Positions 1-64,000 of a stretch of DNA of 64,000 bases are shown one piece after another. Positions within the stretch are counted from its first letter, which is position 1; each line of letters starts with the position of its first letter. The stretch is from an uncultured Gemmatimonadales bacterium (GTDB taxonomy: Bacteria; Gemmatimonadota; Gemmatimonadetes; Gemmatimonadales; Gemmatimonadaceae): contig CAWKNZ010000007.1 in NCBI GenBank assembly GCA_963851265.1, positions 711,091-775,090 on the forward strand, in the 5' to 3' direction. The translations under genes and the position numbers were made by a program. The notes under the pieces are model-generated. The model ran no database searches and was not told the DNA's origin. It worked only from the letters and a program-made list of their open reading frames with translations.

Positions 1-264
1 GCCGCCGACGGCGTCACGCCCGACGAGCTGGCGCGCGCGCAGACGTACGCGTTAGGCACCTACGCCATCGCGCGGCAGGGCGGGGGCGCGGTGCTCGGCG
101 ACGTGCTCGACGCGTGGCAGGCCGGCGACGGACTGCACGAGCTGGACGAGTACGAGGCGCGGGTGCGGGCCGTCACCACGGACGACGTGCGCGCGTTCGC
201 GGCCGCGCACTTCGATCCGGCGCGCCACGTCGAGGGCGTGGTGCGCGGAGCGGACGCGACCTGA
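1..264 (+). CDS. C-terminal fragment of a probable M16 (pitrilysin/insulinase) family peptidase, 5'-truncated by the window edge
   Basis: Frame 1 is open from base 1 to TGA at 262-264. It reads ...GVTPDELARAQTYALG...EYEARVRAVTTDDVRAFAAAHF..., typical of the M16 C-terminus. Not in the ORF track. Confidence 0.65.
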   Translation, partial: AADGVTPDELARAQTYALGTYAIARQGGGAVLGDVLDAWQAGDGLHELDEYEARVRAVTTDDVRAFAAAHFDPARHVEGVVRGADAT

Positions 265-307
265 CGCGGCCGCGGGCGCGCGCCGCGACGGCAGCCCCGC
301 CGCGCGG

Positions 308-586
308 CTACCGCGGCTGGTAGAGCGTCGGCGTGGCGCGCTCGCCACCCTCGGCTGACGTCCGGTCCGCGAGCAGCGCGGCGGTGAACCGCTGCCCTTC
401 GGCCACGCGCTCGACCTCGATCGCGATCGCGTCGACGGCCTGCTCGATGCGCGCGAGCCGCGCGTCCATCGCGCGCAGCTCGGGCCCCCCGGCGCCGCGG
501 CCGCGGCCGGCCATCGTCCTCACCACGCTGACGATGGTGCCGGAAATGATGGCGACGACGGAAACGAAGGCGAGCGCGTGCGACAC
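308..586 (-). CDS. Small membrane-anchored coiled-coil hypothetical protein
   Basis: N-terminal hydrophobic helix, then RLARIEQAVDAIAIEVERVAEGQRF. Start uncertain. Confidence 0.65.
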   Translation of the reverse strand: MSHALAFVSVVAIISGTIVSVVRTMAGRGRGAGGPELRAMDARLARIEQAVDAIAIEVERVAEGQRFTAALLADRTSAEGGERATPTLYQPR

Positions 587-734
587 GAGGACTCCGGGAT
601 GATCGGCGGGTGAGGCGCCCCGGCGTGCGGGGCCGCGCGCCGGCCATGACCGTGCCGGCTCGGGCCCTACGGCCGCGACCGCCCGGCGGTGTCAACGCCT
701 CCGGCCGGCTCCGGGAGGCACGCGGCGCCCGCCG

Positions 735-1916
735 TCACCCCGCGAACCGCACGCACACCGGCGCCGGCACCTCCACGTGCAGCCCGCTCGGCGTGAGGCG
801 CCCGCTCGACCGGTCGACGCGGAATCCCGTGATCGTGTTGGACCGCTGGTTGGCCGCGTACAGGAACGCCCCCGAAGGGTCGAGCGCGAAGTTGCGCGGC
901 CAGTCGCCGCCCGTCGGCACGCGCTGCACGAGCGTGAGCGTGCCCGTCCGCTGGTCGATCCCGAACACGACGAGCACGTTGTCGCCGCGCACCGACGCGT
1001 AGAGGAACCGCCCCGAGGGCGCGACGTGCAGGTCGGCGGCCGTGCGCTCGGTCGCGCCCGACGCCTCCACCGCGGGCACGGTCTGCAGCGGCGTCAGCGC
1101 CCCGGTGGCCGGGTCGAAGCGGTACGCGCCGACCGTGAGGTCCAGCTCGTTGGTGACGTAGACGAAGCGCCCGCCCGGGTGGAAGGCGATGTGGCGCGGC
1201 CCCGCGCCGGGCCGCGTCGCGATGGTCGGCACTGCGGCGGGGGTGAGCGCGCCACCCGAACCGCCGAGCGCGTAGACGTAGATCTGATCGGTGCCGAGGT
1301 CTGCGGAGAGCGCGAAGCGACCCGACGGATCGGGGACGATGCTGTGCGCGTGCGGGCTCTGCTGCCGGTCGGTACGCGGCCCCGAGCCGGTGTGCGGCAG
1401 TAGCTGCGTGAGCGCGCCGAGGCTGCCGTCCGCCGCGATCGGTAACGCGGCGACGCTCCCGCCCGTGTAGTTCGCGACCAGCGCGGTGCGTCCCGCGGGG
1501 TCGACCGAGATGTAGGCCGGCGCCGCGCCACCCGACGCGTGCGGCTGACCGAGCGGGGTGAGCTCGCCGGAGCCCGCGGCAATCGCGAAGGCACTCACCG
1601 CGCCCGACGCCGCACCCTCGTACTTCTCGACCTCGTTGACCGCGTACAGCACCGTACCGCGCGGGTGGAGGGCGAGGAACGACGGGTTGGGCCCCACGAC
1701 GCTCGCGCCGAGCGGGCGCCACTCGCCGGTCGTCGGGTTCACGCGGTAGCGGTACACGCCCTCCGTGCGCCCGCCCTCGGTGTAGGTGCCCACGTAGACG
1801 AGGCGCCCGTCCTCGACGGATGCGCCGGACGGCGCCCGGCCGTCGCGACCGGTGGACGCGCGGGCCGCGAGCCAGACGGCCCCGGCGGAGGAAGCGAGGA
1901 AGTCGCGACGATTCAC
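735..1916 (-). CDS. pgl: Lactonase family 7-bladed beta-propeller (6-phosphogluconolactonase/gluconolactonase-like) with Tat signal
   Basis: MNRRDFL twin-arginine signal; VYVGTYT, PHAHS, GPRH and WPRNF motifs; next to gntP and gntK. Confidence 0.85.
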   Translation of the reverse strand: MNRRDFLASSAGAVWLAARASTGRDGRAPSGASVEDGRLVYVGTYTEGGRTEGVYRYRVNPTTGEWRPLGASVVGPNPSFLALHPRGTVLYAVNEVEKYEGAASGAVSAFAIAAGSGELTPLGQPHASGGAAPAYISVDPAGRTALVANYTGGSVAALPIAADGSLGALTQLLPHTGSGPRTDRQQSPHAHSIVPDPSGRFALSADLGTDQIYVYALGGSGGALTPAAVPTIATRPGAGPRHIAFHPGGRFVYVTNELDLTVGAYRFDPATGALTPLQTVPAVEASGATERTAADLHVAPSGRFLYASVRGDNVLVVFGIDQRTGTLTLVQRVPTGGDWPRNFALDPSGAFLYAANQRSNTITGFRVDRSSGRLTPSGLHVEVPAPVCVRFAG

Positions 1917-4232: not shown

Positions 4233-4344
4233 ACGGGGCGAGGCGGCGGGCGACGCGTCGCACGTGGCCGCGCCCGGGACGACGCGCGGACCGGCGGCAC
4301 CGAATGTGAACCGGGCGCCTGCGTCCCTCATCCCTCCCGTCCGC

Positions 4345-4761
4345 ATGGCTGACCAGTCCGACCGCTCCGAATCGCGCCAACAGGCGCTCAACCCGCACCG
4401 CGACGAGGACCGCCAGCGCGCGGCCGACGTCGCCTACTCGCAGCTCCGCCAGCGCGGCGTCGACGTCACCGGTGACGAGGACCCCGACGCGCTCGCCGAC
4501 ATCCTCGAGTCCGTCGAGCGCTTCGAGAACGCCGTCTCGATGCTCGGCGCCGACCGCATGACCAACGCGCCCGACAGCGCGCAGCCCGACGACCGCCGCC
4601 TCGTGCTCCCCCCGCGGCTCGACGGCGAGGCGCCCGCGACCTACGCGCGCCGCATCCGCTCGGCGGCCGACGGCATCCAGAGCCGCGCGCCGGCCGACGC
4701 GCCGGCCCAGGGCGCGGGCGACGCCGCGTTAGGCGGTCTGGCCGCCGACGCGCAGGGCTGA
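4345..4761 (+). CDS. Hypothetical protein
   Basis: ATG at 4345 (MADQSDR...); acidic helical composition with GC3-biased codons. Confidence 0.7.
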   Translation: MADQSDRSESRQQALNPHRDEDRQRAADVAYSQLRQRGVDVTGDEDPDALADILESVERFENAVSMLGADRMTNAPDSAQPDDRRLVLPPRLDGEAPATYARRIRSAADGIQSRAPADAPAQGAGDAALGGLAADAQG

Positions 4762-8037: not shown

Positions 8038-8157
8038 GCGCCCGCCGGGCGCGGCGTTAGGCGCGGGCGCGCCGGCCGGAAATGCGAACGCCCCCGAGTG
8101 CGGGGGCGCTGCGGACGTGCGGGCTCGGCGGGCGATCGGTGCCGGGCGGTGCTGACG

Positions 8158-13504: not shown

Positions 13505-15172
13505 ATGGCCACCTACGCCCCCACCGCGCCGCTCGCGGCGCCCACGCGCGACGTCGCGATCAAGGACGTGCGCGGCGTCATCTTCGCCGCCTCGCTCGGC
13601 ACCGTGTTCGAGTGGTACGACTTCTACCTGTACGGCTCGCTCGCGGCGATCATCTCGAAGCAGTTCTTCTCGGGCGTCAACCCGACGGCCGGCTTCGTGT
13701 TCGCGCTGCTCGCCTTCGCCGCCGGCTTCGCCGTCCGCCCGTTCGGCGCGGTCGTCTTCGGCCGGCTCGGCGACCTCGTCGGGCGCAAGTACACGTTCCT
13801 GGTCACGATCCTCATCATGGGCTTCTCGACCTTCCTGGTCGGGGTGCTCCCGTCGTACGCGTCGATCGGCGTGATCGCGCCCATCGCGCTCGTCACCCTG
13901 CGGCTGCTGCAGGGCCTCGCGTTAGGCGGCGAGTACGGCGGCGCGGCGACGTACGTGGCCGAGCACGCGCCCAACGGGAAGCGCGGCAGCTACACGGCGT
14001 GGATCCAGACGACCGCGACGCTCGGCCTCTTCCTCTCGCTCCTCGTGATCCTCGGCTGCCGCGTCGTGCTCGGCACCGAGCAGTTCGAGGCCTGGGGCTG
14101 GCGCATCCCGTTCGCCGTCTCGCTCGTGCTGCTCGCGGTCTCGACGTGGATCCGGCTCCGCCTGGACGAGAGCCCGATGTTCCGGCAGATGAAGGCCGAG
14201 GGGAAGGGGTCGAAGTCGCCGCTCAAGGACTCGTTCGGCAACTGGGGCAACCTCAAGCTCGTGCTGCTCGCGCTGTTCGGGCTCGCGATGGGGCAGGCGG
14301 TGGTGTGGTATACCGGGCAGTTCTACGCGCTGTTCTTCCTGACCCAGATGCTGAAGGTGGACGCGCAGAGCGCGAACCTGATGGTCGCCGCGGCGCTCCT
14401 GCTCGCCACGCCGTTCTTCATCGTGATGGGCGCGCTGTCGGACCGGATCGGGCGCAAGCCGGTCATCCTCGGCGGGTGCCTCGTCGCCGCGCTCACGTAC
14501 TTCCCGCTGTTCAAGGCGCTCACCCACTACGCCAACCCCGCGCTCGAGCAGGCGCAGACGACCGCGCCGGTGACGGTCGTCGCCGACCCCAACGCGTGCT
14601 CGTTCCAGTTCGACCCGGTGGGTAAGGCCAAGTTCACGTCGAGCTGCGACGTGGCGAAGGCGGCGCTCGTCAAGGCGGGCGTGCCGTACGTGAACCAGGC
14701 CGCGGCGGCCGGCAGCGTCGCGCAGGTGACGGTGGGCAGCACCGCGCTGCCGTCGTACGACGGCAAGGCGCCCGACGCCAAGGCCCGCGGGGCCGCGTTC
14801 GACAAGGCGTTAGGCGGTGCGCTCAAGTCGGCGGGCTACCCGGCCAAGGCCGACCCCACGCGCGTCAACACGCCGATGGTCATCGCCGTGCTGTTCGTGC
14901 TCGTGCTCTACGTGACGATGGTCTACGGGCCGATCGCCGCGATGCTCGTCGAGATGTTCCCCACGCGCATCCGCTACACCTCGATGTCGCTCCCCTACCA
15001 CATCGGGAACGGCTGGTTCGGCGGCTTCCTGCCGACGACGGCGTTCGCGATCGTCGCCGCGACGGGCAACCTGTACTCGGGGCTCTGGTACCCGATCATC
15101 ATCGCGGCCATCACGGTCGTCATCGGCGCGCTGTTCGTGCGCGAGACGCGGACGGTCGACATCCGCGGCTGA
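13505..15172 (+). CDS. MFS transporter, metabolite:H+ symporter (MHS) family
   Basis: GTVFEWYDF, GDLVGRK, GGEYGGA and EMFPTRIRYT motifs; ATG at 13505. Confidence 0.9.
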   Translation: MATYAPTAPLAAPTRDVAIKDVRGVIFAASLGTVFEWYDFYLYGSLAAIISKQFFSGVNPTAGFVFALLAFAAGFAVRPFGAVVFGRLGDLVGRKYTFLVTILIMGFSTFLVGVLPSYASIGVIAPIALVTLRLLQGLALGGEYGGAATYVAEHAPNGKRGSYTAWIQTTATLGLFLSLLVILGCRVVLGTEQFEAWGWRIPFAVSLVLLAVSTWIRLRLDESPMFRQMKAEGKGSKSPLKDSFGNWGNLKLVLLALFGLAMGQAVVWYTGQFYALFFLTQMLKVDAQSANLMVAAALLLATPFFIVMGALSDRIGRKPVILGGCLVAALTYFPLFKALTHYANPALEQAQTTAPVTVVADPNACSFQFDPVGKAKFTSSCDVAKAALVKAGVPYVNQAAAAGSVAQVTVGSTALPSYDGKAPDAKARGAAFDKALGGALKSAGYPAKADPTRVNTPMVIAVLFVLVLYVTMVYGPIAAMLVEMFPTRIRYTSMSLPYHIGNGWFGGFLPTTAFAIVAATGNLYSGLWYPIIIAAITVVIGALFVRETRTVDIRG

Positions 15173-16902: not shown

Positions 16903-16909
16903 GCGCGCG

Positions 16910-27037: not shown

Positions 27038-27050
27038 GGCGCGCACGTGC

Positions 27051-30630: not shown

Positions 30631-30644
30631 CGGAACCCGCCCCG

Positions 30645-31841: not shown

Positions 31842-31920
31842 CGCCGGCCGGACGCCCCTGGTCCGGCCGGCGTGCCGTTAGGCGCGCACGCGCGCACCGC
31901 GGCTCACCGCCCGCGGTACC

Positions 31921-35787: not shown

Positions 35788-35865
35788 GGCGCGCGACGGC
35801 CTAACGGAAGGTGAGTGGTCGGGGGCGGGGCGGGGCGGCGCGCCGCCGGGACGCCGGGCGCGCGC

Positions 35866-49124: not shown

Positions 49125-49149
49125 CGACCGCCTGCCGCTTCGCCGCCTC

Positions 49150-51027
49150 GTGGCCCTTCCCGCTGCCGCTCCCGCCATCAGTCCGTCGCTCGCCGACCGC
49201 GAGCGCCTGGGCGAGTTCCTCGTCCGCGAGGGGCTCGTCACGCGCGAGCAGGTGGCGCGCGCGGTGGCCGAGCATCAGACGACCGGCATGCGGCTCGGCT
49301 ACTGCCTCGTGAAGCTCGGGTTCGTGCAGGAGGTCGAGTTGACGAAGGCCCTCGCGCGGCAGTTCCGGATGCCGGCGGTCGACCTGTCGCGCTTTGAGCC
49401 CGACGCGCGGGTGGTCAAGCTCGTGCCGGCGGAGCTGGCGCTCCGGCATCTCGTGTTGCCGCTCAAGCGCGAGGGGCGCACGCTCACCGTGGCGTTGGCC
49501 GACCCCGCGAACCCCAACGTTCTCGAGGACCTCAAGTTCATCACCCGCTACGACGTGTTTCCCGTCGTCGCGGGCGAGTACACGTTACGCGCGCTCGTCG
49601 AGAAGCACTATGACGTCGGCGAGCAGCAGCAGCAGGTGCAGTCGCAGCTGCAGACCCTCGTCGCGGAGTTCGCGAGCGACGACGCGGCCGGCGACGTCGA
49701 GGTGCTCGAGAACACCGAGGACGACGGTTCGGCGACCTCCGTCCTGGGCTCCGGCGTCGACGAGGCGCCGGTGGTCCGGCTGGTGAACGCGATCCTGGCC
49801 GAGGCGGTCAAGCGCGGGGCGAGTGACGTTCACATCGAGTGCTTCGAGCACGAGTTGCGGGTGCGCTTCCGCGTGGACGGCGCGCTCGCGGACATCATGA
49901 CGCCGCCCATCAAGCTCAAGGCGGCGCTCATCTCGCGGCTCAAGATCCTCGCCTCGCTCAACATCGCCGAGCGGCGGGTGCCGCAGGACGGGCGCATCAA
50001 GCTGAAGATGGGGAAGAAGGTCGTCGACTTCCGCGTGTCGACGCTGCCCACGCTGTTCGGCGAGAAGGTCGTGCTGCGCATCCTCGACAAGGGCAACCTC
50101 GCGCTCGACCTCGAAACGTTCGGGCTGGAGCCGCGCGCCGAGCGGGAGTTAGGCGAGGCGATCGCGAACCCGTACGGGATGGTGCTCGTCACCGGGCCCA
50201 CGGGATCGGGCAAGACGACCACGCTCTACTCCGCGCTCGCGAAGATCAACACCGGCGACGTGAACATCATGACCGCCGAGGACCCCGTCGAGTACAACCT
50301 GTTCGGGATCAACCAGGTGCAGGTGCGCACCGAGGTGGGGATGACGTTCGCGGCGGCGCTGAAGGCGTTCCTGCGGCAGGACCCGAACGTGATCATGGTC
50401 GGCGAGATCCGCGATCTGGAGACCGGCGGCATCGCCGTCAAGGCCGCGCTCACCGGCCACCTCGTGCTGTCGACGCTGCACACGAACTCCGCGCCCGAGA
50501 CCGTGACGCGGTTGCTGGACATGGGGCTCGAGCCGTTCAACGTGTCGAGCGCGCTGAACCTCGTGCTGGCGCAGCGGCTCGTGCGGCGGGTGTGCGTGAA
50601 GTGCAAGCAGCGGCACGCGATGACCGCGGTGGACTTCGCCGCGGCGAAGGTGCGTCCGGAGACGACGCTGCGCGAGCTGCGGTTCACGGCCGTGGCGATC
50701 GAGGACGCGAAGGCGCGTGCGACGCCGGAGGCCGCGCCGCTGCTGGCCGGCGTCTCCGTGGACACGCCGGTGGGGGAGCTGCCGTACTTCCGCGGCGCGG
50801 GCTGCGAGACGTGCAACGGCACCGGGCTGAAGGGGCGGCAGGGGCTGTACGAGGTGATGGTGATGACGCCCAAGATCCGGCGTCAGGTGCTCACCGGCGC
50901 CGACGCCGCGATGATCCGCGAGGTGGCGGTAGAGGAGGGGATGCTGACGCTGCGGATGGACGGGTGGCTCAAGGTGTTGAAGGGGATCACGACGATCGAA
51001 CAGGTGGTGCGGGAGACCAGCGTATGA
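49150..51027 (+). CDS. pilB: Type IV pilus assembly ATPase PilB
   Basis: RLGEFLV N-terminal domain; GPTGSGKTT, EDPVE and RQDPN motifs; CxxC pairs. Confidence 0.93.
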   Translation: MALPAAAPAISPSLADRERLGEFLVREGLVTREQVARAVAEHQTTGMRLGYCLVKLGFVQEVELTKALARQFRMPAVDLSRFEPDARVVKLVPAELALRHLVLPLKREGRTLTVALADPANPNVLEDLKFITRYDVFPVVAGEYTLRALVEKHYDVGEQQQQVQSQLQTLVAEFASDDAAGDVEVLENTEDDGSATSVLGSGVDEAPVVRLVNAILAEAVKRGASDVHIECFEHELRVRFRVDGALADIMTPPIKLKAALISRLKILASLNIAERRVPQDGRIKLKMGKKVVDFRVSTLPTLFGEKVVLRILDKGNLALDLETFGLEPRAERELGEAIANPYGMVLVTGPTGSGKTTTLYSALAKINTGDVNIMTAEDPVEYNLFGINQVQVRTEVGMTFAAALKAFLRQDPNVIMVGEIRDLETGGIAVKAALTGHLVLSTLHTNSAPETVTRLLDMGLEPFNVSSALNLVLAQRLVRRVCVKCKQRHAMTAVDFAAAKVRPETTLRELRFTAVAIEDAKARATPEAAPLLAGVSVDTPVGELPYFRGAGCETCNGTGLKGRQGLYEVMVMTPKIRRQVLTGADAAMIREVAVEEGMLTLRMDGWLKVLKGITTIEQVVRETSV

Positions 51028-52205
51028 GAATGCCTAACGATGTGCCCGGGGCCGGCGCCGTGGCGGGCAACGGCGCGGGGGCCGCGGCGGTCCCGCCCGC
51101 GCCGCCAAACCTCCGCACGCTGCTGGAGGAGATGGTCGCGCGCGGCGCGAGCGACCTGCACGTGACCGCGGGCGAGCGGCCGAAGTTGCGCGTGGACGGC
51201 GAGCTGGTGAACGCGGCGGGCGCGGTGCTCACGCCGCGCGACACGATGGCGCTCGCGTACTCGGTGCTCACCGACGCGCAGAAGAAGCGGTTCGAGATGG
51301 AGGACGAGCTCGACTTCTCGTTCGGGATCCCGCAGCTCGCGCGCTTCCGCGGCAACGCGTTCAAGCAGCGCGGGTGCGTGTCCGTGGCGGTGCGGCAGGT
51401 GCCGTTCGCGATCAAGCCGTTAGGCGAGCTGGGTCTGCCGCCGGCCGTGTCGCGGATGGCGGAGAAGCCTCGCGGGCTCGTGCTCGTGACGGGCCCGACC
51501 GGGTCGGGGAAGAGCACCACGCTGGCCGCGATGCTCGACAAGATCAACAAGGAGCGGCGCGGGCACATCATCACGGTCGAGGACCCGATCGAGTTCGTGC
51601 ACCGGCATCAGGGGTGCATCGTGAACCAGCGCGAGGTGGGCACCGACACGAAGAGCTTCTCGAGCGCGCTCAAGTACGCGCTGCGCGAGGACCCCGACGT
51701 GCTGCTGGTCGGCGAGATGCGCGACCTGGAGACGATCCAGGCGGCGCTGACGATCGCGGAGACGGGCCACCTCGCCTTCGCGACGCTGCACACCAACTCG
51801 GCGGCCGAGGCGATCACGCGCATCGTGGACGTCTTCCCGGCGACGCAGCAGGCGCAGGTGCGGGCGCAGCTCGCGTTCGTGCTGGAGGGGGTCGTGACGC
51901 AGACGCTGGTGCCGCGCGCGGCGGGGCGGGGCCGGGTGCTCGCGGCGGAGGTGCTGGTCGTCACGCCGGCGATCCGCGCGCTCGTGCGCGACGACAAGGT
52001 GCACCAGATCTACTCGCTCATGCAGGGCGGGAAGAAGTACGGGATGCAGACGCTGAACGACGCGTTGTACCAGCTGTACGTCGCGCGGCAGGTGACGGCG
52101 GAGGAGTGCCTGCGGGTGAGCGGCGCGCCGAACGAGTTCCTGCGGATGACGGGGCAGCCGGTGCCCGAGGACCCCACGGCGCCGCGCGGCGCCCCCACGA
52201 AGTAA
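51024..52205 (+). CDS. pilT: Type IV pilus retraction ATPase PilT
   Basis: ASDLH, GPTGSGKSTT, EDPIE, AETGH, AIRALVR (AIRNLIRE-like) and GMQT motifs. Confidence 0.93.
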   Translation: MRMPNDVPGAGAVAGNGAGAAAVPPAPPNLRTLLEEMVARGASDLHVTAGERPKLRVDGELVNAAGAVLTPRDTMALAYSVLTDAQKKRFEMEDELDFSFGIPQLARFRGNAFKQRGCVSVAVRQVPFAIKPLGELGLPPAVSRMAEKPRGLVLVTGPTGSGKSTTLAAMLDKINKERRGHIITVEDPIEFVHRHQGCIVNQREVGTDTKSFSSALKYALREDPDVLLVGEMRDLETIQAALTIAETGHLAFATLHTNSAAEAITRIVDVFPATQQAQVRAQLAFVLEGVVTQTLVPRAAGRGRVLAAEVLVVTPAIRALVRDDKVHQIYSLMQGGKKYGMQTLNDALYQLYVARQVTAEECLRVSGAPNEFLRMTGQPVPEDPTAPRGAPTK

Positions 52206-52217: not shown

Positions 52218-53411
52218 ATGCCTACCTTCGCCTACACCGCCCGCACGATGGGCGGCGACCTCCGTTCGGCCACGATCGACGCCCCGTCGCGCGAGGACGC
52301 GGTGTTGCAGCTGCGCAAGCTGCGGCTCGCCGTCGTCAAGGTCGACGAGATGGTGCGCAAGCCCAGGGCGCCGGGCAAGGTGCCGATGAAGGACGTGGTG
52401 ATCTTCACGCGGCAGTTCTCGACGATGATCAACGCGGGGCTGCCGCTGGTGCAGGCGCTCGACATCCTCTCGAAGCAGAGCGACAACAAGGCGCTGCAGC
52501 AGGTGACGCGCGCGGTGGTGTTCGACGTCGAGAGCGGGGCGACGGTGAGCGACGCGTTGGGCAAGCATCCGAAGGTGTTCACGGACCTCTACGTGAACAT
52601 GGTCGCCGCGGGCGAGGCGGGCGGTATCCTCGACACGATCCTGATGCGCCTGGCGACGTTCCTGGAGAAGGCGGACGCACTGATGCGGAAGGTGAAGGGC
52701 GCGATGATCTACCCGGCGGTGATCTCGGGCGTCGCGGTGATCTGCGTGACGGTGCTGCTGTGGAAGGTGATCCCGGTATTCGAGGGGATGTTCGCGAGCG
52801 TCAACCTCGAGCTGCCGCTGCCGACGCGCGTGGTGGTGGGTCTGTCGCGGTTCGTGAACGGGTACTGGTGGGCGCTGCTCGCGGGCGGGGCCGGGGCGGG
52901 ATTCCTGGTGCGGCAGTACTACGCGACGGCCAACGGCAAGCTGGTGATCGACCGCCTGCTGCTGAAGGTGCCCGTGCTGGGCGACGTGCTGCGGAAGGCG
53001 GCGGTCTCGCGGTTCACGCGGACGTTGGGCACGCTGATCGCGTCGGGCGTGAGCATCCTCGACGGGCTGGAGATCACGGCGCGGACGGCGGGGAACCGGG
53101 TGGTGCAGGACGCGATCCTGGCGTCGCGGACGAGCATCGCGGGCGGCGACACGATCGCCGCGCCGCTGGCGAAGAGTCAAGTGTTCCCGCCGATGGTGAT
53201 CTCGATGATCGCGGTGGGGGAGCAGACGGGCGGGCTGGACGAGATGCTGACGAAGATCGCGGACTTCTACGACAACGAGGTGGACGCGGCGGTGAGCGCG
53301 CTGCTGTCGCTGTTGGAGCCGCTGATGATCGTGGTGTTAGGCGTGGTAGTGGGGGGGATGGTGGTGGCGATGTATCTGCCGATTTTCGATATGATCAACG
53401 CGGTGCAGTGA
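52218..53411 (+). CDS. pilC: Type IV pilus inner-membrane platform protein PilC (T2SS F family)
   Basis: FTRQF, AGEAGG, YPA, GEQTG, LEP and MYLPIF motifs. Confidence 0.93.
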   Translation: MPTFAYTARTMGGDLRSATIDAPSREDAVLQLRKLRLAVVKVDEMVRKPRAPGKVPMKDVVIFTRQFSTMINAGLPLVQALDILSKQSDNKALQQVTRAVVFDVESGATVSDALGKHPKVFTDLYVNMVAAGEAGGILDTILMRLATFLEKADALMRKVKGAMIYPAVISGVAVICVTVLLWKVIPVFEGMFASVNLELPLPTRVVVGLSRFVNGYWWALLAGGAGAGFLVRQYYATANGKLVIDRLLLKVPVLGDVLRKAAVSRFTRTLGTLIASGVSILDGLEITARTAGNRVVQDAILASRTSIAGGDTIAAPLAKSQVFPPMVISMIAVGEQTGGLDEMLTKIADFYDNEVDAAVSALLSLLEPLMIVVLGVVVGGMVVAMYLPIFDMINAVQ

Positions 53412-53572
53412 GGAAGGTTGCCTCGCGTTGATCGACAGTTTGTCAAACCATTGACGCACACCTTGCCGAACGGTTGAGCGGCGATTTTCCGCTACGCGCG
53501 GCGGCTTGCCGCGAACGGTCACCGCGCACCGCACGTACCGCTGCTCGAATGCTCCGATCGAACCCGCGGCAG

Positions 53573-56500: not shown

Positions 56501-56729
56501 GCTCGGCGACTGCTGCGTCGAGCGCGTCGGCGAGTAGGGCTGGGTTGAGACGCGCGAGGGCGACGCGCACGCGGCCGTCCAGGATGACGTCGCCGGTGGT
56601 CTCGCGGCCGAGCGTCCCGGTGGGGCCTAACGTCTCGTCCATCGCCGACACGGTGGACCAGCCCAGCTCCGCGAAGAGCTGAATCGCGGGCTGCTCGACG
56701 AGCTGGTCCTCGGTGTAGGCGTGGGGCAC
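53573..56729 (-). pseudogene. hsdR: Type I restriction endonuclease subunit R with many frameshifts (pseudogene or assembly indels)
   Basis: Fragments in shifting frames: [78 protein letters not shown], plus an intact C-terminal domain. Confidence 0.9.
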
Positions 56730-56740
56730 GGGTCAGCCCC

Positions 56741-59005
56741 TCACTTGAAATGCTGCTGGATGTACTCGTGCATGTGACTCGGCGGTAGCGCCGGGGAGGA
56801 TGCTCCCGCGCGGATGTAGAACTCCTCCGTCGAACCGTTCTTCAGAAAGACAGGCCGGTCGCTACGGTCGACCTCGATCACGAGGACACGCTGTCCGGCG
56901 ACGTCGGCGAAGCTGGGCCTCAGGCACGAGTGCACGCTGTTGCCGAGGTGGCTCTTCACCAAGTTGTCCAGGTGAAGCGCCATCTTGTCATCGTTCTCGA
57001 ACCCGTCATTGCCCAGTCCGATCGGATTGCCTGCGTCGTCCACGCCGACGAACAGCGTACCGCCCTTCGAGTTCAGGAACGCGGCGAGGGTCTTGATCAC
57101 GGCGTGCTCCATCTTCGAATCCTTCTGACCCGTGTGAAGATTCGCGCGGAGGGTCGACTTGAACTCAGTGAGTGGCCCCTCGCCCCGGCTGATCCGCGCC
57201 TCGAAGGTGTCCATGTCTGCCGGGACGGTCTCACCATCGGTGAGGCGCCGGTAGCCGTCGGCAATGACCTTGGCGATCCCGCGTCGCCGAGACTCCAAGA
57301 ACTTCGTGTACTCCATCTGCTCCCAACCGGTCGGCAGCGCGTGCCAGTACGCCTGGTCCGCCCGCTCCTTTGCCGTGAGTCGGCTCCAATACTTCGGGAG
57401 GTACTCCGACGGCGGAGTGTCCGAGATCGCGATGTTGTCGTTCCACTCGACCAACGCGTAGTTGGCGATCTGGTTGGTTTGGGGCGCCAACGTGAACCCG
57501 AGGCTAGACAGATAGCTCTTCGGGAAGAGGTGGTGCCGTTCCGCTCCTGATTTCGGCGACTTGATCGAGGGGTCGAGAACGTCGCGAGTGCGCTTCTTCG
57601 AGAAGAGGACACGCGCGTCGAGCACGTTCAACGACGCGAGGTAAGCGTAGAGCAGCGGGCTTGTCGCGGACGACGTGTCGAGGCGATTCGGTAGTGTGAC
57701 CGCCCAGAAGTCTTCGGTCAGATCCGCCGCCATCGCACGCTCGGCCCACGCGAGGAAATCACCGGCCACCGTCGCGCTCCGCAGTGCGGCGAGATCACGC
57801 TCCATCAAGGTCTCCGGCGAGCCACCGGTGTACCGCGACGTGACCGATGCCATGAAGAACCAGCGACCGATGACCTGCCCGAGCGTGTTCGGGTTGACCT
57901 TGAGGTCGATGCGCCCGATCAAGAACAGGATGTACGTGTAGAAGAGCGTCGTCTTGGAGCTGACGAGATTCGCCCCAGTGAAACCGGATTGCTTCAGAAT
58001 GCCGAGGTAGTCATGCCAGTGCGTCAGGTTGAGCGCGTGCGTCTGCGCTTGCTGAAGCCGGGCGAACTGCAGCTCGCGCTGCGCCTGGCTGAAGACCTCC
58101 GTGTCCATGTCCTTGCCGCGGAGGACTGAGTACGCGGATTTGAGCCGGGCGCGGCGGAACCCCATGCCAACTGCCACGCGGAGGAGCTGGTCAGGCGATG
58201 GCTCGACGAAGTGGTTGTACGCGCTCGGTCCCGATTTGCTCGGCTGGCGCGCGGCACGACAGAAGCTCTCGAGCTCCTTTCGTCCGTCCTCCCAGAACAC
58301 CGACATCAGTGTGAGGATGAAGTCAGCCTGGTTCAGCTTCTTCCCCTCGCTGTTGATCCGGACGAAAACCTCGGCGACCTGCTCTTCGTCAATACTTGCA
58401 GCGAGTTGGAGGACGGTGAACGGGTAGCTGGTCAGCGAGAAGAGCCGCTGGAGCGCATTCTCGCACGCCTTCCGCTGCTCCATGGTCAGCTCGACTCCGT
58501 TCCGCTTCCGGTGCGACGCCAGCCGATCGAGATACTCGCCGACGATCCGGTACTGGCTCGCGTTTGGGGCGAACAGCTCGGAAACGTTCGGCAGGTACTC
58601 TGGGTCCTTGCGGATCGCCGCATCGCAGACCTGGAAGGTCCCGTCGGTCGGCCGGAATGCGATTTCGATCCGCTCGGTTTGGTAGTCCTCGCGCACGACG
58701 GGGATGCCCTTCAGCACCGCGTAGAGCGACGTTAGGCGCTGCTGTCCATCGACAATCAACAGCTGCGGGACCTTCTGGTGGCTGTTGGTGCCAATCTGCT
58801 TCGTCTTCTCACCAACCTGGTTTTCCCAGAAGAGGAAGTACCCGACCGGGTAGCCACGATACATCGAGTCGAACAGGTCACGCACCTTCGCATTCTTCCA
58901 CACGAATGGGCGCTGAATGTCGGGCAGCCCGATCTCGCCCATCTGGACGTCGTCGATCAGCGTCGCGAGCGAGTAGCCGACTTCCTTGAAGAGCGTCGTA
59001 GTCAT
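56741..59005 (-). CDS. GmrSD-like DUF262 + HNH protein fused to a C-terminal Schlafen/AlbA_2 domain
   Basis: IQRPFVW, DGQQRLT and FVRIN (DUF262); ERHHLFP...N...N (HNH); GEGPLTEFK...AAFLNSKGGTLFVGVDD (AlbA_2). Confidence 0.85.
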   Translation of the reverse strand: MTTTLFKEVGYSLATLIDDVQMGEIGLPDIQRPFVWKNAKVRDLFDSMYRGYPVGYFLFWENQVGEKTKQIGTNSHQKVPQLLIVDGQQRLTSLYAVLKGIPVVREDYQTERIEIAFRPTDGTFQVCDAAIRKDPEYLPNVSELFAPNASQYRIVGEYLDRLASHRKRNGVELTMEQRKACENALQRLFSLTSYPFTVLQLAASIDEEQVAEVFVRINSEGKKLNQADFILTLMSVFWEDGRKELESFCRAARQPSKSGPSAYNHFVEPSPDQLLRVAVGMGFRRARLKSAYSVLRGKDMDTEVFSQAQRELQFARLQQAQTHALNLTHWHDYLGILKQSGFTGANLVSSKTTLFYTYILFLIGRIDLKVNPNTLGQVIGRWFFMASVTSRYTGGSPETLMERDLAALRSATVAGDFLAWAERAMAADLTEDFWAVTLPNRLDTSSATSPLLYAYLASLNVLDARVLFSKKRTRDVLDPSIKSPKSGAERHHLFPKSYLSSLGFTLAPQTNQIANYALVEWNDNIAISDTPPSEYLPKYWSRLTAKERADQAYWHALPTGWEQMEYTKFLESRRRGIAKVIADGYRRLTDGETVPADMDTFEARISRGEGPLTEFKSTLRANLHTGQKDSKMEHAVIKTLAAFLNSKGGTLFVGVDDAGNPIGLGNDGFENDDKMALHLDNLVKSHLGNSVHSCLRPSFADVAGQRVLVIEVDRSDRPVFLKNGSTEEFYIRAGASSPALPPSHMHEYIQQHFK

Positions 59006-59031
59006 GTGGATGGTTGGCCGCGGCAGGAACG

Positions 59032-60252: not shown

Positions 60253-61879
60253 GCTTCGAGGAGCGCGGACACGTTGGCGGCAATGGTCAATTCGAGCCCA
60301 CGCGCCTCAGTGTTGAGTACTTCGAGTTCCTCGTGCAACCTGCCAAGCCGGGATTTGAAGTCCTCGTCGCTCACCTCTTCGCCAGGGGCAACGCCGACGT
60401 AGCGCCCCGGATTCAGCGACCATCCCTGCGCCTCGATCTCCGCAACCGTCGCCGCGCGGCACAGGCCCGGCACGTCGGCGTACTTCGGCTTCTTCCCGAA
60501 CACCTCCGCGATCTTCGCCCGCGCCTCGTCGCCGCCTAACGCGAAGTCCAGCGCCTCGCCGCGCCACAGCCTGACAAGGTTGCCGAGGAAGTCGATCTGC
60601 GCCGCCGTCCAGTCGCGGTGCGCGCGGTCGATCTGCCGGTAGATGTGCCGCGCGTCGACGAACAGCACCTCGTCCCGGCGCGCCGAATGTGCCTTGCCGC
60701 GGTCGAGGAACCAGAGCGTGCAGGGCAGCGTGACCGTGTAGAACATGTTGGGCCCGACGGCGACCATCACGTCCACCGCGCGCGCCTCGATCGAGCTGGC
60801 GGCGGATTTCCTGCTCCGAGGCGCGGGCGTCGGACGCGGAGTTCGCCATCACGAACCCCGCGCGCCCCTTGGCGTTCAGCGCCGAGTAGAAGAGCTGGAT
60901 CCAGAGGTAGTTCGCGTTGTCGGTGCGCGGCAGGCCGAAGGGAAAGCGGCGGCCCGGGCCGACGGCGTCCTTCAGTCGCTCCTTGTCGACCGCGTTCACG
61001 TTGAACGGCGGATTGGCGAGCACGAAGTCGAAGTGTCCCGTCGCCTCGTGCGGGTCGTCGTAGTAGCTGTTGATCTGGCCGCCGTGGCGGATGTCGCCGT
61101 CCAGCCCGTGCACGGCGAGGTTCATGCGGCAGAGGCGGCCCGTCTCGTCGGTCTTCTCGACGCCGTGGATGCGAGAGCTCGTCGTCGGGGTTCTTCGATG
61201 CGCCTGCGACGAACGCGCGCCGACTGCACGAACATGCCGCCCGAGCCGCACGCGGGGTCGAGGATGCGGCCGTGGTAGGGCTCGAGGATCTCGACGATGC
61301 AGCTTGCACGATGCTGGCCGGCGTGTAGAACTCGCCGCCCTTCTGGCCCTCGGTGCGCGCGAACTCGCCGAGGAAGTACTCGTAGATGCGACCGAAGGCG
61401 TCGTACTCGACGTTGGACGGGATCTCGGAGACCTTCTTCAGCAGCTCCTTGAGCAGCGTGCTGCTGAAGAGCTGGTACGGTCTTGCGGCAGCACGCCGGC
61501 GAGCTGCGGGTTGTGCTCGCTCGATCTCGGCGCATGGCCTCGTTGAGGGCCTTGCCGACGTTCGTCGCGCCTCGGGAAGTTGGAGCAGGGAGCCGAAGCG
61601 GGCTGTCTCGGGCAGGTAGAGGACGCTCTCGGCGTGGTAGGCCGTGGGGTCGTCGACGCGCGACGCCGCGGCGGCCGAGGCGCCGGCGGTTTCCAGCTCG
61701 GCGCGCCGCTTCGCAAAGCGGACCTCGGCGAAGCGCAGGAAGATCAGGCCGAGGACCGGGGCGGAGTACTGCTGGGCGGTGAGGCCGCTGTTCGCGCGGA
61801 GCTGGTCGGCGGCGGCCCAGAGGCGCTTTTCGAGCGTACCGGCGTCGGGGTCAGTTCCGGACGGAGCGATCCACTGCAT
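60249..61879 (-). pseudogene. hsdM: Type I R-M methyltransferase subunit M (m6A) with several frameshifts
   Basis: [32 protein letters not shown] and SLNPGRY motifs spread over different frames. Confidence 0.9.
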
Positions 61880-62729
61880 GTGCGGCTGGGGAAACGAGGA
61901 GCAACGAGAGGGGAAGCGACGGGACCGGCAATCTGGTACCGAGTCACGTTCTCCGGAACGTGTCCTCGCCAGTCATCGGGCGCGGCCGAAGTGTGGGGCG
62001 CATAGCCGGCGCCGAGCTGTCGATTGGAGCGTTACCCCCGCGGGCTCCGACCCAGACCAGCGCCGGAGCGGACGCTTGATCGGCTTGGCCAGACTCGGTC
62101 GCGCCGGACACGGCGGTTATTTCGGCTCGAGAGCGCGGATTTCCTCGGCTTCGGCCATCCGGGGCGCGGTGCAATGTGGCCCGACCCGCAGGTTATTTGT
62201 CTGCCGGCGCGCTCCGCTTCGCACGTTGGCGCGGCCCGACGCGAGTACTTCTCCGAAGCCGAGACAGCGGTGCGGACCGTCGACGTGAAGGGCAGCGACC
62301 CAGACATCGTCAATGGACGAACCGGCGATATCCTCGCGCGCGGGCGCGGGCGGCATCCACGGGACCATCACGCTCCGGGCCGGGGTGACGAGAACGTTTG
62401 CCTGGCGCGGGCGCCGCGTGCCGCTGCACTCCGGGCGGCAGGATATCGCGCTGTGTCCGTGGGGGAGGTGGCGCAGCCGCACATCGCAGGCACGCTCGTC
62501 GAAGCGGTCGCCAGTTGGACGGCCCTGCGAACGCGCCGCGTGTCGGGCGTCGTCGCCGACGGACTCCACGCCGGGCACCCCGCCGGCGCCTCACGGTGTT
62601 GGCGTCGACAAGCAGGGCCTGCCGGTTAGGCGTGAGCCGGCCGGGCCGGCAATCAGATCGCCCATTGGATTTGACCCGCGGCAGCGGACACCCGATTAGC
62701 CCCGCTATGGTGCGGGGCGGAGGTGTTCG

Positions 62730-63068
62730 ATGGCGGAAGGCAGGCAGCGGCGGGCGTTCACCGCCGAGTTCAAGGTCGAGGCGGTGCGGCGCATGGCCGA
62801 GCGGCGCGCGGCCGGGGTGGCGCTGAAGCAGATCGCGCGCGAGCTCGACGTGCGCGACGACCTGCTGCGGAAGTGGGCGCGGCAGGTCGGGGAGCACGCC
62901 GCGGGCGGCAGAGCCGCCCCCGCGCCGGGCGAGCTGTTCCCCGGCAATGGGCGCCTGCCGAGCGAGGCGGACGAGGTGCGGCGGCTCGAGCGCGAGGTCG
63001 CGCGGCTCAAGCAGGAGCTCGCCTTCGTAAAAAGTGCCGCGGTGTACTTCGCGAGGGAGTCGCGGTGA
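62730..63068 (+). CDS. IS3 transposase OrfA (HTH)
   Basis: RRAFTAEFKVEAV, IARELDV..LRKW and a leucine-zipper-like tail; A-run at 63029-63033 as possible -1 slip site. Confidence 0.9.
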   Translation: MAEGRQRRAFTAEFKVEAVRRMAERRAAGVALKQIARELDVRDDLLRKWARQVGEHAAGGRAAPAPGELFPGNGRLPSEADEVRRLEREVARLKQELAFVKSAAVYFARESR

Positions 63069-63964
63069 GCGACAAGTACGCCGCCATCGCCGCGCACCGC
63101 GGGCAGTACCCGGTGCGGCTCATGTGCGACGCGCTCGGCGTCAGCCCGAGCGGCTTCTACGCGGCCCAGGGGCGCGCGCCGGGCGCGCGGGCCGCGGCCG
63201 ACGAGCGGCTCCGGGTCGAGGTCCGGGCGGCGCACCGGAAGAGCCGCGGGCGCTACGGCGCGCCGCGCGTCCACCGCGCGCTGCGGGCGGCGGGCACTCG
63301 GGTCGGCAAGAAGCGCGTCGCGCGGGTGATGCGCGAGGACGGCCTGGTGGCGCGTCGGGCGCGGCGCCGGATACGGACGACGGACTCGGCGCACGCGCAG
63401 CCGGTGGCGCCGAACCTGGTGGCGCGCGGCTTCGCCGTCGCTACCCAGCCGGGGCTCGACCGCACGTGGGTGAGCGACTTCACGTACATCCCCACGCGCG
63501 AGGGCTGGCTCTTCCTCGCCGTGGTGCTCGACCTGGCGAGCCGCCGCGGGTAAAAACGGTCGGGCTGGGCGGTGCGCGAGACGATGGAGACGGAACTCGT
63601 GCTCGCGGCGCTCCGGATGGCGCTCGCCGCCCGGCACCCCGCGCCCGGGGTCGTGCAACACTCGGATCGTGGGGCGCAATACGCGAGCGGGGCCTACCAG
63701 GCGCTGCTCGCCGCGTACGGCGCGGTGCCGAGCATGAGTCGCAAGGGAGATTGCCACGATAACGCGGTCGCCGAGGCGTTCTTCGCCACGCTCGAACACG
63801 AGCTGCTGGCCGACACCACCTTCCTCTCGCGCGCCGCGGCGCGCGCCGGCATCTTCGAGTTCCTCACGTGGTACAACGCCGAGCGGCTCCACTCGAGCCT
63901 CGGCTACGTCAGTCCCGTGCAGTTCGAGCGGCACCTGCGCGCGCAGCCGGCGCGCGCGGCCTAA
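63065..63964 (+). pseudogene. IS3 transposase OrfB (DDE integrase core) with an in-frame TAA at 63551-63553
   Basis: YGAPRV, WVSDFTYI, HSDRGAQY, NAVAEAFF and YN..RLHSSL motifs; both halves are in the same frame. Confidence 0.85.
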
Positions 63965-64000
63965 CTCCGTGTCCGCTGCCGCGGGTCAAATCCAGAACGT

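Follow-up and report, generated by a model that had tools for sequence, protein, structure and literature searches.

The window, i.e. the whole stretch of 64,000 nucleotides analysed, belongs to the genome (G000) of a soil bacterium of the Gemmatimonadaceae, in which one (C/T)GTTAGGC is found per about 2.6 kb, against the codon habits of the organism. The heptamer GTTAGGC is present in the window in 26 exact copies, 15 on the plus and 11 on the minus strand; a recount returned the same number and coordinates as an earlier note on this DNA. Two congeneric genomes, G001 and G004, were used for comparison; contigs are written C1, C2 and so on.

Word copies within genes and spacers

Fourteen of the 26 sites read xxG-TTA-GGC within a called gene. 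On the plus strand, GCG-TTA-GGC is found at 51..57 (A-L-G, in an ORF running off the window start; unaligned in G001 and G004), at 4728..4734 (ORF 4087-4761; absent at the orthologous place in both congeners) and, within an MFS transporter gene (13244-15172), at 13921..13927, where both congeners have CTC, and at 14809..14815, kept in both. The same strand carries TCG-TTA-GGC at 17326..17332, in an acyl/acetyl-CoA synthetase gene (16910-18865; kept in G001, differing by one letter in G004), and CAG-TTA-GGC, with A at -1, at 19496..19502, in an ABC ATPase gene (18903-19628); the latter site is GTTGGGC in G001, and contigs of sequencing run X2 show A>G at 19499. On the minus strand, genes of the same orientation contain GCG-TTA-GGC at 25174..25180 (ketoacyl synthase, 24262-25503; kept in G001, not in G004), 29431..29437 (DUF92, 28975-30570; kept in G004, CTG in G001) and 34495..34501 (ABC exporter, 33967-35787; kept in both), and CTG-TTA-GGC at 27850..27856 (FAD-binding, 27580-28869; kept in G004, CTG in G001).

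The other frames described in the earlier note were found as claimed. The word is read as GTT-AGG-CAG (V-R-Q), a rare frame, at 18713..18719 (+), in the acyl/acetyl-CoA synthetase gene (kept in neither congener), as CGC-CTA-ACG (R-L-T) at 58731..58737 (+), in a GmrSD/DUF262-Schlafen gene on the minus strand (56741-59005), and as ATG-CCT-AAC at 51032..51038 (-), across the start of pilT. Stop codons, also as reported, are formed at 27049..27055 (-; the TAG of a flavin reductase gene, 27051-27620, minus strand; kept in G004), at 30625..30631 (-; GCC-TAA-C on the plus strand, the end of open frame 29896-30630 (+), at a place upstream of the DUF92 gene; kept in neither congener), at 63959..63965 (-; the TAA, in GCC-TAA-C, of an integrase-core ORF, 63572-63964) and at 16898..16904 (+), where a TAG (16900-16902) closes an open frame, a putative gene, 8 nt before the gene starting at 16910. 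The copies listed as intergenic do lie in no called ORF: 8056..8062 (+; kept in G004), 31877..31883 (+), 35799..35805 (-; directly upstream of the ABC exporter gene and kept in G001), at which a word-free stretch of 14.3 kb begins, and 62625..62631 (+; G at -1), in the spacer before an IS3-family transposase gene.

The competence machinery is represented in the window by plus-strand genes for a ComEA-type helix-hairpin-helix DNA receptor (48525..49124; HHH_3, E 1.1e-15), a PilB-type pilus assembly ATPase (49150..51027; T2SSE, E 2.2e-140, and MshEN), a PilT-type retraction ATPase (51030..52205; T2SSE, E 5.7e-50) and a PilC-type platform protein (52218..53411; T2SSF, E 5.9e-65). The closest named relative of the PilB is from a MAG titled Gemmatirosa sp. 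(93% identity). On the plus strand, pilB carries GAG-TTA-GGC (A at -1) at 50148..50154 and pilT CCG-TTA-GGC at 51419..51425, neither of them kept in the two congeners, and pilC GTG-TTA-GGC at 53336..53342, which is GTTGGGC in G004. Translation from 51030, the start spanned by the minus-strand copy, yields the PilT-type ATPase.

The region from 53.4 to 64 kb is a strain-specific island of lower GC, with no counterpart at the orthologous place in G001 or G004. Its 5 copies in 10.6 kb amount to normal word density, which is compatible with an origin in a gene pool that bears the word. In addition to those given above, they include 56625..56631 (-), outside called genes, and GCG-TTA-GGC at 60534..60540 (-), in a type I methylase fragment (60249-60776, minus strand).

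Abundance, context and spacing

In 100 dinucleotide-preserving shuffles of the window, GTTAGGC was found 2.65 times on average (sd 1.36, maximum 6), and none reached 26. The chance expectation of 5-6 copies previously put forward was too high, so that the enrichment is stronger than first stated. The genome as a whole holds 1762 copies, present on every contig, as against 8 to 118 copies for each one-letter neighbour of equal AT content. Shuffling of the window and genome-wide counting, the latter suggested earlier as a check, confirm the hyper-abundance. As to the motif itself, the GTTAGGC core stands, but the actual word is longer than a heptamer, being Y-GTTAGGC followed by not-T (8-9 nt), with the same preference in spacers. 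The top 8-mer in 400 kb was CGTTAGGC (116 observed, 5.1 expected). A literature search found no paper on the YGTTAGGC word.

The occurrence of the word in both orientations and all frames, in stop codons and in spacers supports the earlier proposal that it acts at the DNA level, not at the protein level. Of the 1029 TTA codons in the genome, 769 precede GGC and 722 lie inside YG-TTA-GGC, in agreement with the impression that most TTA codons fall within the motif. TTA accounts for 21% of Leu codons in YG-Leu-GGC and for 0.3-1.5% elsewhere. Synonymous opportunities are filled both in sense (L-G, 721/5604, 12.9%) and in antisense (P-N, 173/959, 18.0%), so that the word is independent of the transcribed strand. 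Among stop codons, 103 of 319 TAA and 56 of 604 TAG are inside the word. Its density rises from 0.30/kb in coding DNA to 0.90/kb in short spacers and to 2.0/kb between genes that converge; spacers are 3-7 times denser than coding DNA, and density peaks where constraint is lowest.

Spacing was compared with samples drawn among synonymous opportunities. Only 5 pairs of sites are 100-200 bp apart, against 24.3 expected (0 of 500 samples as low); sites repel one another below 500 bp, and pairs are in excess at 0.5-4 kb. The aligned window sites common to congeners are 5 of 15 for G001 and 6 of 18 for G004, at about 83% DNA identity, the usual alternative states being CTC, CTG or TTG Leu codons. 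Sites therefore turn over between congeners while density is maintained. Conservation in relatives, which the earlier note proposed to check, holds in that retention exceeds that of matched rare-codon 7-mers (14-16%; p 0.007), but about two thirds of the sites are not shared.

Accumulation at mostly synonymous, unconstrained places and rapid turnover could be accounted for by biased mismatch repair or gene conversion of the VSP type, the word being a neutral product with no reader. The one-step neighbour YG-TTG-GGC is raised as well (8.2% vs 3-4%), which may be taken in favour of this view, yet donor words of VSP repair are depleted. Short-range repulsion is not expected from a process of mutation alone, and retention above the matched control also speaks against it; we consider this explanation of low probability.

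Distribution among genomes and strand polarity

Word density is bimodal in the family: 52 of 151 genomes, and 26 of 68 genera, are rich. Beyond the family, richness was seen only in one genus of family f2 and one genome (G030) of family f3, with none in the remaining families of the phylum sample, in line with the suggestion of a lineage-specific word. The distribution is on/off among genera, with the identical word wherever it is rich; the densest genome, G012, shows a slight dialect, tCGTTAGGy. One poor genome (G114, 80 copies) belongs to a rich genus (G061, 4498; G151, 4831), and a 400-kb sample of the poor relative G006 contained no strongly enriched substitute word. A basecalling artefact is ruled out, since dozens of assemblies made independently show the same hyper-abundance and the word is also dense in Gemmatirosa kalamazoonensis KBS708, a cultured type strain with a finished PacBio genome. 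Soil-metagenome contigs were identical over sites 13921 and 17326, although the run is possibly the window's own source.

The short, asymmetric word resembles the sites of type III, IIG and BREX systems, and the window itself contains a type I system as well as a GmrSD-like gene; the word might thus be the target of a methyltransferase, restriction-modification or defence system. The methylation option, raised in the earlier note, is weakened by the published SMRT methylome of word-rich KBS708, which contains only the motifs RGATCY, ATGCAC and CCAGN7TCA. A density of 0.75/kb on the two G. kalamazoonensis megaplasmids also tells against such a role. Furthermore, hosts usually avoid their own restriction sites, while this word is enriched. 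SMRT detects m5C poorly, which leaves room for that modification; altogether we hold a methylation or defence role to be very improbable.

HIP1 of cyanobacteria (GCGATCGC) is, like YGTTAGGC, a hyper-abundant 8-mer, patchy within its phylum and written into genes in any frame; unlike YGTTAGGC, it is palindromic. A periodicity of 10-90 kb is reported for HIP1. The available text of Xu, Lawrence and Durand (PMC5861425) describes sites retained above control and non-randomly spaced, with a function long unknown, and attributes HIP1 density to selection on chromosome structure. By analogy, the word could be bound by a cytoplasmic chromosome-organising or nucleoid-associated protein. Abundance, retention and spacing match that report (PMC5861425, as far as available), the patchy distribution in one phylum is closer to HIP1 than to DUS or USS, and the word is on all replicons sampled, megaplasmids included. 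A housekeeping stretch of 45 kb around parB, with 0 copies against 12.1 expected, is nearly word-free also in its orthologous pieces in G001 and G004, and such a conserved zone (genus g1) could reflect an intracellular reader. However, the densest genome, G012, has 1.2-1.6 sites/kb around its parB, the turnover of two thirds of the sites between congeners would be odd for a positional function, and no candidate protein was found. This possibility is rated as rather unlikely.

With replichores inferred from gene orientation alone, in one contig, a modest excess on the presumed leading strand was observed (130/906 vs 41/434 opportunities; OR 1.6, p 0.011). Such an excess beyond gene orientation would suit a Chi-like signal modulating the AddAB helicase-nuclease at DNA ends and selected to be frequent, as would the asymmetric word of 7-8 nt (Chi words have 5-8) and its even spacing, appropriate for repair. 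In G000, two neighbouring genes with PD-(D/E)XK nuclease domains (C3:244.5-249 kb) form an AddAB-like pair, and a search for RecC was negative. The polarity is nonetheless weak: in a region where co-oriented genes make up 74% of gene length, 216 copies are leading and 103 lagging, the division among uncalled sites is 68 to 54, and ordinary coding 8-mers are equally skewed. The strands are divided 50+/33- in G060:C2 and 28+/28- in G150:C1, and strict polarity was found neither there nor in the G000 contig. The contrast drawn earlier with polarised Chi or KOPS, based on the occurrence of both orientations, therefore stands as to strict polarity, but has to accommodate a modest, about 1.6-fold, excess. 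Moreover, known Chi sites are far less enriched than this word, with its 20-50 fold excess against codon usage, and poor relatives such as G006 lack an alternative strongly enriched word. A Chi-like role is thus considered improbable.

Resemblance to integron sites and uptake signals

GTTAGGC is identical to the attC R box of local integrons, flanking Y/R included. This identity, the preferences for Y at -1 and not-T at +7, and the leading-strand excess had not been remarked in the earlier note. The word and its complement fit the consensus sequences GTTRRRY (R', core) and RYYYAAC (R'', inverse core) given in the available parts of two papers (PMC3053210, PMC12901181). Because the word equals the attC/attI R box, the dispersed copies could be read by an integron integrase, or a relative, as genomic recombination or landing sites. 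G000 carries an interrupted intI and attC-like hairpins whose ends are GCCTAAC(R)...(Y)GTTAGGC (C10:188.9-203.8 kb, C6:1592-1708). Most copies listed for two poor relatives, G021 and G023, form -/+ pairs 82-128 bp apart, repeating every ~0.5 kb, an arrangement resembling cassette arrays. Genomic attG sites are indeed used by integrases for the insertion of cassettes, but they require only GWT, according to the available part of a preprint. A lone R box, moreover, is not an attC: each dispersed copy stands by itself, lacking an L box and a partner for a hairpin, and such copies lie in housekeeping genes, where insertion would harm. Nor does integrase presence track the word (matches with E<=1e-40 in 39/52 rich and 58/91 poor genomes; OR 1.7, p 0.2): 13 rich genomes have no match, including G090 (4576 copies) and G136 (6328), and G012 and G001 have broken pieces only. 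An integrase reader appears quite improbable.

The earlier note had named DUS and USS, along with HIP1, as analogues, and rightly so. The word shares several features with the USS of Pasteurellaceae and the DUS of Neisseriaceae: it is short, asymmetric, present on both strands and over-represented by a factor of hundreds to thousands; it sits inside genes in spite of codon preference, with a further enrichment in spacers and near the ends of genes; it is specific to its lineage, slight dialects included; its density is about one per 0.7-2.6 kb; and it is accompanied by type IV pilus, ComEA, ComEC and DprA. For known uptake sequences, an orientation bias inside reading frames has been described, and for those of Pasteurellaceae also a preference for the ends of genes (PMC2346458, available text). 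YGTTAGGC differs in its letters, its shorter length (8-9 nt), its occurrence in Gemmatimonadota and its coincidence with the integron R box.

The uptake role that the earlier note drew from comEA-pilBTC gains from the presence in G000 of ComEC, two secretins and DprA besides the window genes, but such genes are nearly universal in the family, in word-rich and word-poor genomes alike. ComEC was found in 51/52 rich and also in 82/91 poor genomes (p 0.09, although related genomes are not independent observations), which means that the machinery fails to separate the two groups; three genera never gave a ComEC match (g25, g48, g67), and all of them are word-poor. A search with the ComP_DUS profile (PF16732) gave no match in G000 and, in other genomes, weak pilin-like matches only, 13 of 16 in word-poor genomes. 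No paper on transformation by Gemmatimonadota was among the literature matches listed. To our knowledge, all members of Neisseriaceae and Pasteurellaceae carry a word, and the on/off distribution, with one poor genome in a rich genus, counts against uptake. Uptake does not predict the leading-strand excess, nor does it alone explain the R-box identity. The word-free stretch around parB is a further point against it.

Our preferred, tentative reading, given somewhat less than an even chance, is that YGTTAGGC is a genome-wide uptake or self-recognition signal, most likely read by the DNA-uptake machinery and maintained by molecular drive; uptake as the reading step is what we infer. In its favour we count the enrichment against codon usage, the independence from the transcribed strand, the high spacer density, the mutual avoidance and the turnover of sites, the lineage-bound distribution, the machinery present, and the word content of the island and of the G. 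kalamazoonensis megaplasmids. A putative receptor, located on the cell surface or else in the periplasm, would bind the word on double-stranded DNA, and fragments bearing it would be imported more often via type IV pilus, ComEA and ComEC, and recombined by DprA and RecA. As a consequence of this preferential import, alleles gaining the word by point mutation would spread and those losing it would be replaced. A single word per fragment would suffice, which would explain the short-range avoidance between sites, and purifying selection on proteins would leave it only synonymous positions, stop codons and spacers.

Genome-wide enrichment and placement of the word

The heptamer GTTAGGC is present in 26 exact copies in the window, 15 on the plus and 11 on the minus strand, the same ones that the earlier note had counted, against a mean of 2.65 and a maximum of 6 in dinucleotide-preserving shuffles. 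The window is the final 64 kb of contig C7 of an assembly of 4.60 Mb (G000; 73% GC, 12 contigs), in which the word occurs 1762 times (885 plus, 877 minus) and is found on every contig, at 0.33-0.55 copies per kb. One-letter neighbours with equal AT content reach just 8-118 copies. The count of k-mers against a Markov background, which that note had called for, gave TTAGG as the most over-represented 5-mer (1925 observed, 613 expected under a maximal-order model) and CGTTAGGC as the top 8-mer (116 versus 5.1 expected in 400 kb, order-3 model). The enrichment is real, strong and genome-wide; over-representation of a short word beyond composition and codon usage is also a trait of the uptake sequences (DUS and USS) of Neisseriaceae and Pasteurellaceae.

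The word exceeds seven letters: the preceding base (position -1) is C in 79% of the copies and T in a further 14%, and T is avoided at position +7. The same preference is repeated in the 83 copies located in short spacers (Y 93% at -1, T 5% at +7), and the flanks are therefore not a side effect of coding. Primase start sites, which are TTA or CTA, were rejected as an explanation, since a trinucleotide requirement cannot account for an exact 8-mer. In the same genome the palindrome AGCGCT is under-represented (1233 observed versus 2235 expected) and its 7-mer variants with one inserted letter are over-represented; judged from these counts, the depletion looks like restriction-site avoidance.

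The position of the copies relative to genes was analyzed by using crude, GC3-based gene calls, covering 69% of G000. On the sense strand 756 copies are read as xxG-TTA-GGC and 27 as GTT-AGG-C, while 174 are antisense as xxG-CCT-AAC and 56 as xGC-CTA-ACx; 127 straddle gene edges and 622 lie in uncalled DNA. TTA makes up 1.0% of the Leu codons (n=1029): 769 of these are followed by GGC and 722 are inside YG-TTA-GGC, so that the earlier impression of most TTA codons lying within the motif holds genome-wide. The share of TTA among Leu codons is 21% in the YG-Leu-GGC context versus 0.3-1.5% in three control contexts. Synonymous opportunities are filled in 12.9% of cases for sense Leu-Gly (721/5604), 18.0% for antisense Pro-Asn (173/959), 3.5% for antisense Leu-Thr and 1.3% for Val-Arg, where the low occupancy goes with the need for two rare codons; sense copies are in excess because Leu-Gly is common. 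Stop codons are also used, 103 of 319 TAA as GCC-TAA-C and 56 of 604 TAG as xGT-TAG-GC, and the density, 0.30 copies per kb inside called genes, is 0.90 in short spacers and 2.0 between convergent genes. The occupancy of synonymous sites, stops and spacers indicates that the word is pushed in wherever protein constraint permits, on either strand, and the proposal of a signal acting on DNA rather than on protein is thus upheld.

A strain-specific island (window 53412-64000), directly downstream of pilC, is absent at this place in the two aligned congeners, G001 and G004. It contains pieces of a type I R-M system (the C-terminal part of HsdR, HsdS, and hsdM in two overlapping frames), together with a GmrSD/DUF262-Schlafen gene and an element of the IS3 family. 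The island is lower in GC, 63.5-70% in bins from 56 kb on. The word, already reported from this R-M island, has 5 copies in the island's 10.6 kb, a normal density. Elsewhere in the window, two paralogous acetyl/acyl-CoA synthetase genes (ACAS_N plus AMP-binding; 11337-13316, minus strand, and 16910-18865, plus strand) flank an MFS transporter gene and cross-match at about 67% identity in a DNA search. Within 45300-49200, the GC skew flips sign near 48 kb, at the divergent junction between an LptF/G-type permease gene (minus) and comEA-pilBTC (plus); this is probably an effect of gene orientation, not an origin.

Orientation, spacing and turnover of the sites

Summed over the rich genomes of the family, those with a high word density, 50701 copies are forward and 50649 reverse. 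The use of both orientations, with strict replichore polarity absent, is shared with DUS and USS. In G000, GC skew and third-position skew gave a replichore signal too noisy for use, and replichores were inferred for part of contig C2 alone, with a terminus placed near 1340 kb from gene orientation and the skew maximum. In this region 216 copies are on the presumed leading versus 103 on the lagging strand, with 74% of the gene length co-oriented. Within strata of gene strand, the word fills 130/906 opportunities on the leading versus 41/434 on the lagging strand, with an OR of 1.6 and p 0.011 on the inferred replichore map; ordinary coding 8-mers are as skewed by strand as the word. The copies are not strictly polarised, and any leading-strand excess on that map is modest, so that the description of the word as occurring in both orientations without replichore polarisation is retained, qualified by an excess of about 1.6-fold. 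A strong polarity in genus g52 was dismissed, the run of plus-strand copies being a listing artefact (50 plus and 33 minus on contig C2 of G060, 28 and 28 on contig C1 of G150).

A Chi-like signal would require RecBCD or AddAB; G000 has an AddAB-like pair of genes (RecC was not found in this genome, which is 94% complete). The strong co-orientation with replication typical of Chi is not seen; both the weak polarity and the scale of the enrichment speak against such a role, which is considered improbable.

Neighbouring copies avoid each other: 46 gaps are shorter than 200 bp, versus 130 expected under a Poisson model. Compared with random draws among the 6563 synonymous opportunities, gaps of 100-200 bp are 5 versus 24.3 (none of 500 samples as low) and gaps of 200-500 bp are 48 versus 64.8, with an excess at 0.5-4 kb. 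The longest word-free stretch extends for 45 kb around parB (contig C1, 182877-227963) and includes ordinary genes, such as those for MnmG, MnmE, phosphoglucomutase and transporters; it offers 91 opportunities, for which 12.1 copies are expected and 0 are present. In G001 and G004 the orthologous DNA likewise has almost no copies, and it is more diverged (74-84% identity) than the syntenic part of the window (66-93%, mostly about 80-87%). All four ParB-family matches of G000 fall inside word-free gaps larger than 14 kb. A general exclusion of the word from ParB/parS zones was rejected, as G012, another rich genome, has 1.2-1.6 sites per kb around its own parB. Nor are the word-free gaps, for the most part, foreign DNA: they chiefly contain housekeeping genes (IF-2, NusA, SecDF, PheS, DnaA/DnaN, DprA), in addition to two plasmid-like segments with ParA and RepA. 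The latter, C6:76506-91677 and C9:116597-131159, are word-free, carry ParA-like and weak ParB-like genes, with a RepA-like gene in one of them, and could represent plasmid-like elements that have integrated.

Synteny between the window and both G001 and G004 extends from about 0.7 to 53.4 kb, with an identity that is mostly about 80-87%. Of the aligned window sites, 5/15 are also found in G001 and 6/18 in G004; reciprocally, 19/24 sites of G001 and 20/26 of G004 are missing from the window, and ten sites are common to the two congeners alone. Where the word is not shared, its place is mostly taken by CTC, CTG or TTG Leu codons. Individual positions thus drift, whereas the overall density is kept. 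The comparison of synonymous sites among related genomes, suggested in the earlier note, revealed a retention (11/33) close to that of average in-phase 7-mers (33-35%) and twice that of matched 7-mers with rare A/T third positions (14-16%, p 0.007), in a small sample from one 64-kb region. Conservation above control is a trait of HIP1, the hyper-abundant word of cyanobacteria, for which a cytoplasmic structural reader has been proposed. HIP1 is a palindromic 8-mer; YGTTAGGC differs, not being its own reverse complement, and a reader of this kind is regarded as rather unlikely here. Neutral biased repair, as the source of the word, appears quite unlikely.

Distribution of the word and relation to integron sites

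Word density was determined in 151 family genomes with a completeness of 80% or more, and in 251 genomes sampled from the phylum. The tallies take in the unpublished G011, G047, G093, G205, G232 and G303, none of which is rich (G093 is intermediate); none of the conclusions depends on any single one of these. The distribution within the family is bimodal: 91 genomes (poor) have less than 20 copies/Mb, 52 (rich) have at least 50/Mb, up to 1480/Mb, and 8 fall between. Rich genomes are spread over 26 of the 68 family genera; a slightly different dialect, tCGTTAGGy, is seen in G012. The word is not shared by most genera, nor by one congener of a rich genus. All 5 genomes of the window's own genus, g1, are rich. 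Contrasts also occur inside genera, with 4498 and 4831 copies in G061 and G151 versus 80 in G114 (genus g53), and 920 and 1069 in G094 and G139 versus 180 in G031 (genus g23). Such on/off differences, among genera and within a genus (G114 versus G061 and G151), provide a natural comparison. Outside the family, the only rich genomes in the phylum sample are five of genus g103, family f2, and none of the remaining families and classes sampled is rich; in a separate sample, G030, of family f3, is rich. No other hyper-abundant word, as a possible substitute, was found in 400 kb of the poor relative G006.

GTTAGGC fits the integron R' consensus, described as GTTRRRY, and its complement fits R'', described as RYYYAAC (PMC3053210, PMC12901181); at the level of sequence, the identity between the word and the attC R box is real. 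In G000, 9 GCCTAAC...GTTAGGC pairs are spaced 30-180 bp apart, and several of them fold as typical attC hairpins, four being in C10:188.9-203.8 kb. About 1740 of the 1762 copies are single, and these dispersed copies neither form a paired R''-L''...L'-R' hairpin nor an attI beside intI. The array of attC-like hairpins (C10:188936-203792) has no integrase match reported nearby. The integrase gene, at C6:3005-6044, is split into two pieces about 2 kb apart and is probably interrupted. In the poor genomes G021 and G023 most of the copies listed are such pairs, repeating about every 0.5 kb. Counts of attC-like pairs across the family are confounded by chance pairs in rich genomes. A nearly identical attC is found in a poor genome of another genus (G048:C116:384-480) and in G000 (C10:194558-194654), which suggests a cassette pool common to rich and poor lineages.

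A role linked to the integrase is made very unlikely by its distribution. Integrase matches (E<=1e-40) are present in 39/52 rich versus 58/91 poor genomes (OR 1.7, p 0.2), and do not track the word; 13 rich genomes have no match, and G012 and G001 have fragments only. With no match in some rich genomes and matches in many poor ones, the integrase does not suffice for the word and is apparently not needed for it either; the word shows no dependence on it. Genomic target sites of the integrase are described in a preprint as requiring GWT alone (Loot et al. 2024).

Methylation, DNA uptake and significance

The word is also abundant in a cultured organism, KBS708, the type strain of Gemmatirosa kalamazoonensis, where 271 kb sampled from its two megaplasmids contain 203 copies (0.75 per kb), with CGTTAGGC found 176 times versus 7.9 expected. 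The word is often followed by A there, in the form GTTAGGCA (78/203), and TTAGGCAT occurs 22 times; this might represent another dialect. The SMRT methylome published for KBS708 lists only three m6A motifs, RGATCY, ATGCAC and CCAGN7TCA. As the strain is rich in the word and its methylome lacks it, the word carries neither m6A nor m4C in this strain (m5C is detected poorly by SMRT); methylation, one of the options originally put forward, is highly improbable.

The genes for ComEA, PilB, PilT and PilC, as first noticed, are all encoded in the window; the closest labelled relative of PilB is from a MAG named Gemmatirosa sp. (93% identity), the other matches being from Gemmatimonas, Gemmatimonadaceae and Gemmatimonadales. 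ComEC, two secretins and DprA are also encoded in G000. The machinery for uptake and processing is thus complete, as in the bearers of DUS and USS, and does not discriminate rich from poor genomes. ComEC was found in 51/52 rich and 82/91 poor genomes; the lone rich genome without it is assembled in 910 contigs, and its congeners do have ComEC. Three genera yielded no ComEC in any genome, and all three are poor. This distribution is consistent with an uptake role, but weak as evidence for it. The ComP_DUS receptor domain (PF16732) had no match in G000, and exceeded the cut-off in 2/151 genomes, both poor. The best-supported mechanism, which we favour tentatively, is an uptake or self-recognition word kept by molecular drive.

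The word and the integron core could also be the same on purpose, as parts of a cassette-harvesting uptake system, a conjecture to which we give a low probability; we know of no uptake specificity for attC. A receptor tuned to (Y)GTTAGGC would preferentially import gene cassettes, each bounded by two copies, together with conspecific DNA. Natural transformation would thereby be coupled to cassette capture, and the word would have spread along the chromosome as a by-product, via molecular drive. Cassette recruitment fed by transformation is described as shown in Vibrio cholerae (PMC12614218).

No published account of the word was found among the matches listed in a full-text literature search, Gemmatirosa genome papers included, as judged from titles and the opening lines of abstracts; the search returned no paper joining Gemmatimonadota with a DNA uptake sequence, and nothing relevant to their natural transformation among the matches listed. 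New here are the finding that integrase and word are not associated, the repulsion between sites at short range and their turnover against a matched control, together with the bimodal distribution in family and phylum with its contrasts within genera, the lack of a ComP-type receptor, and the word's occurrence in a cultured strain with a methylome that excludes m6A/m4C marking.

How uptake words and HIP1 arose has been a matter of debate for decades, and to our knowledge only two bacterial families mark their own DNA with uptake words. If the tentatively favoured uptake reading is right, this is a third, independent case, and it comes from a major, little-studied soil phylum. The on/off contrasts, the exact match to the integron core and the harmless cultured strain KBS708, whose genome is finished and whose methylome is published, jointly make the reader protein and the question of drive versus selection directly testable. 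Were the integron link real, transformation would be tied to cassette capture in soil bacteria.
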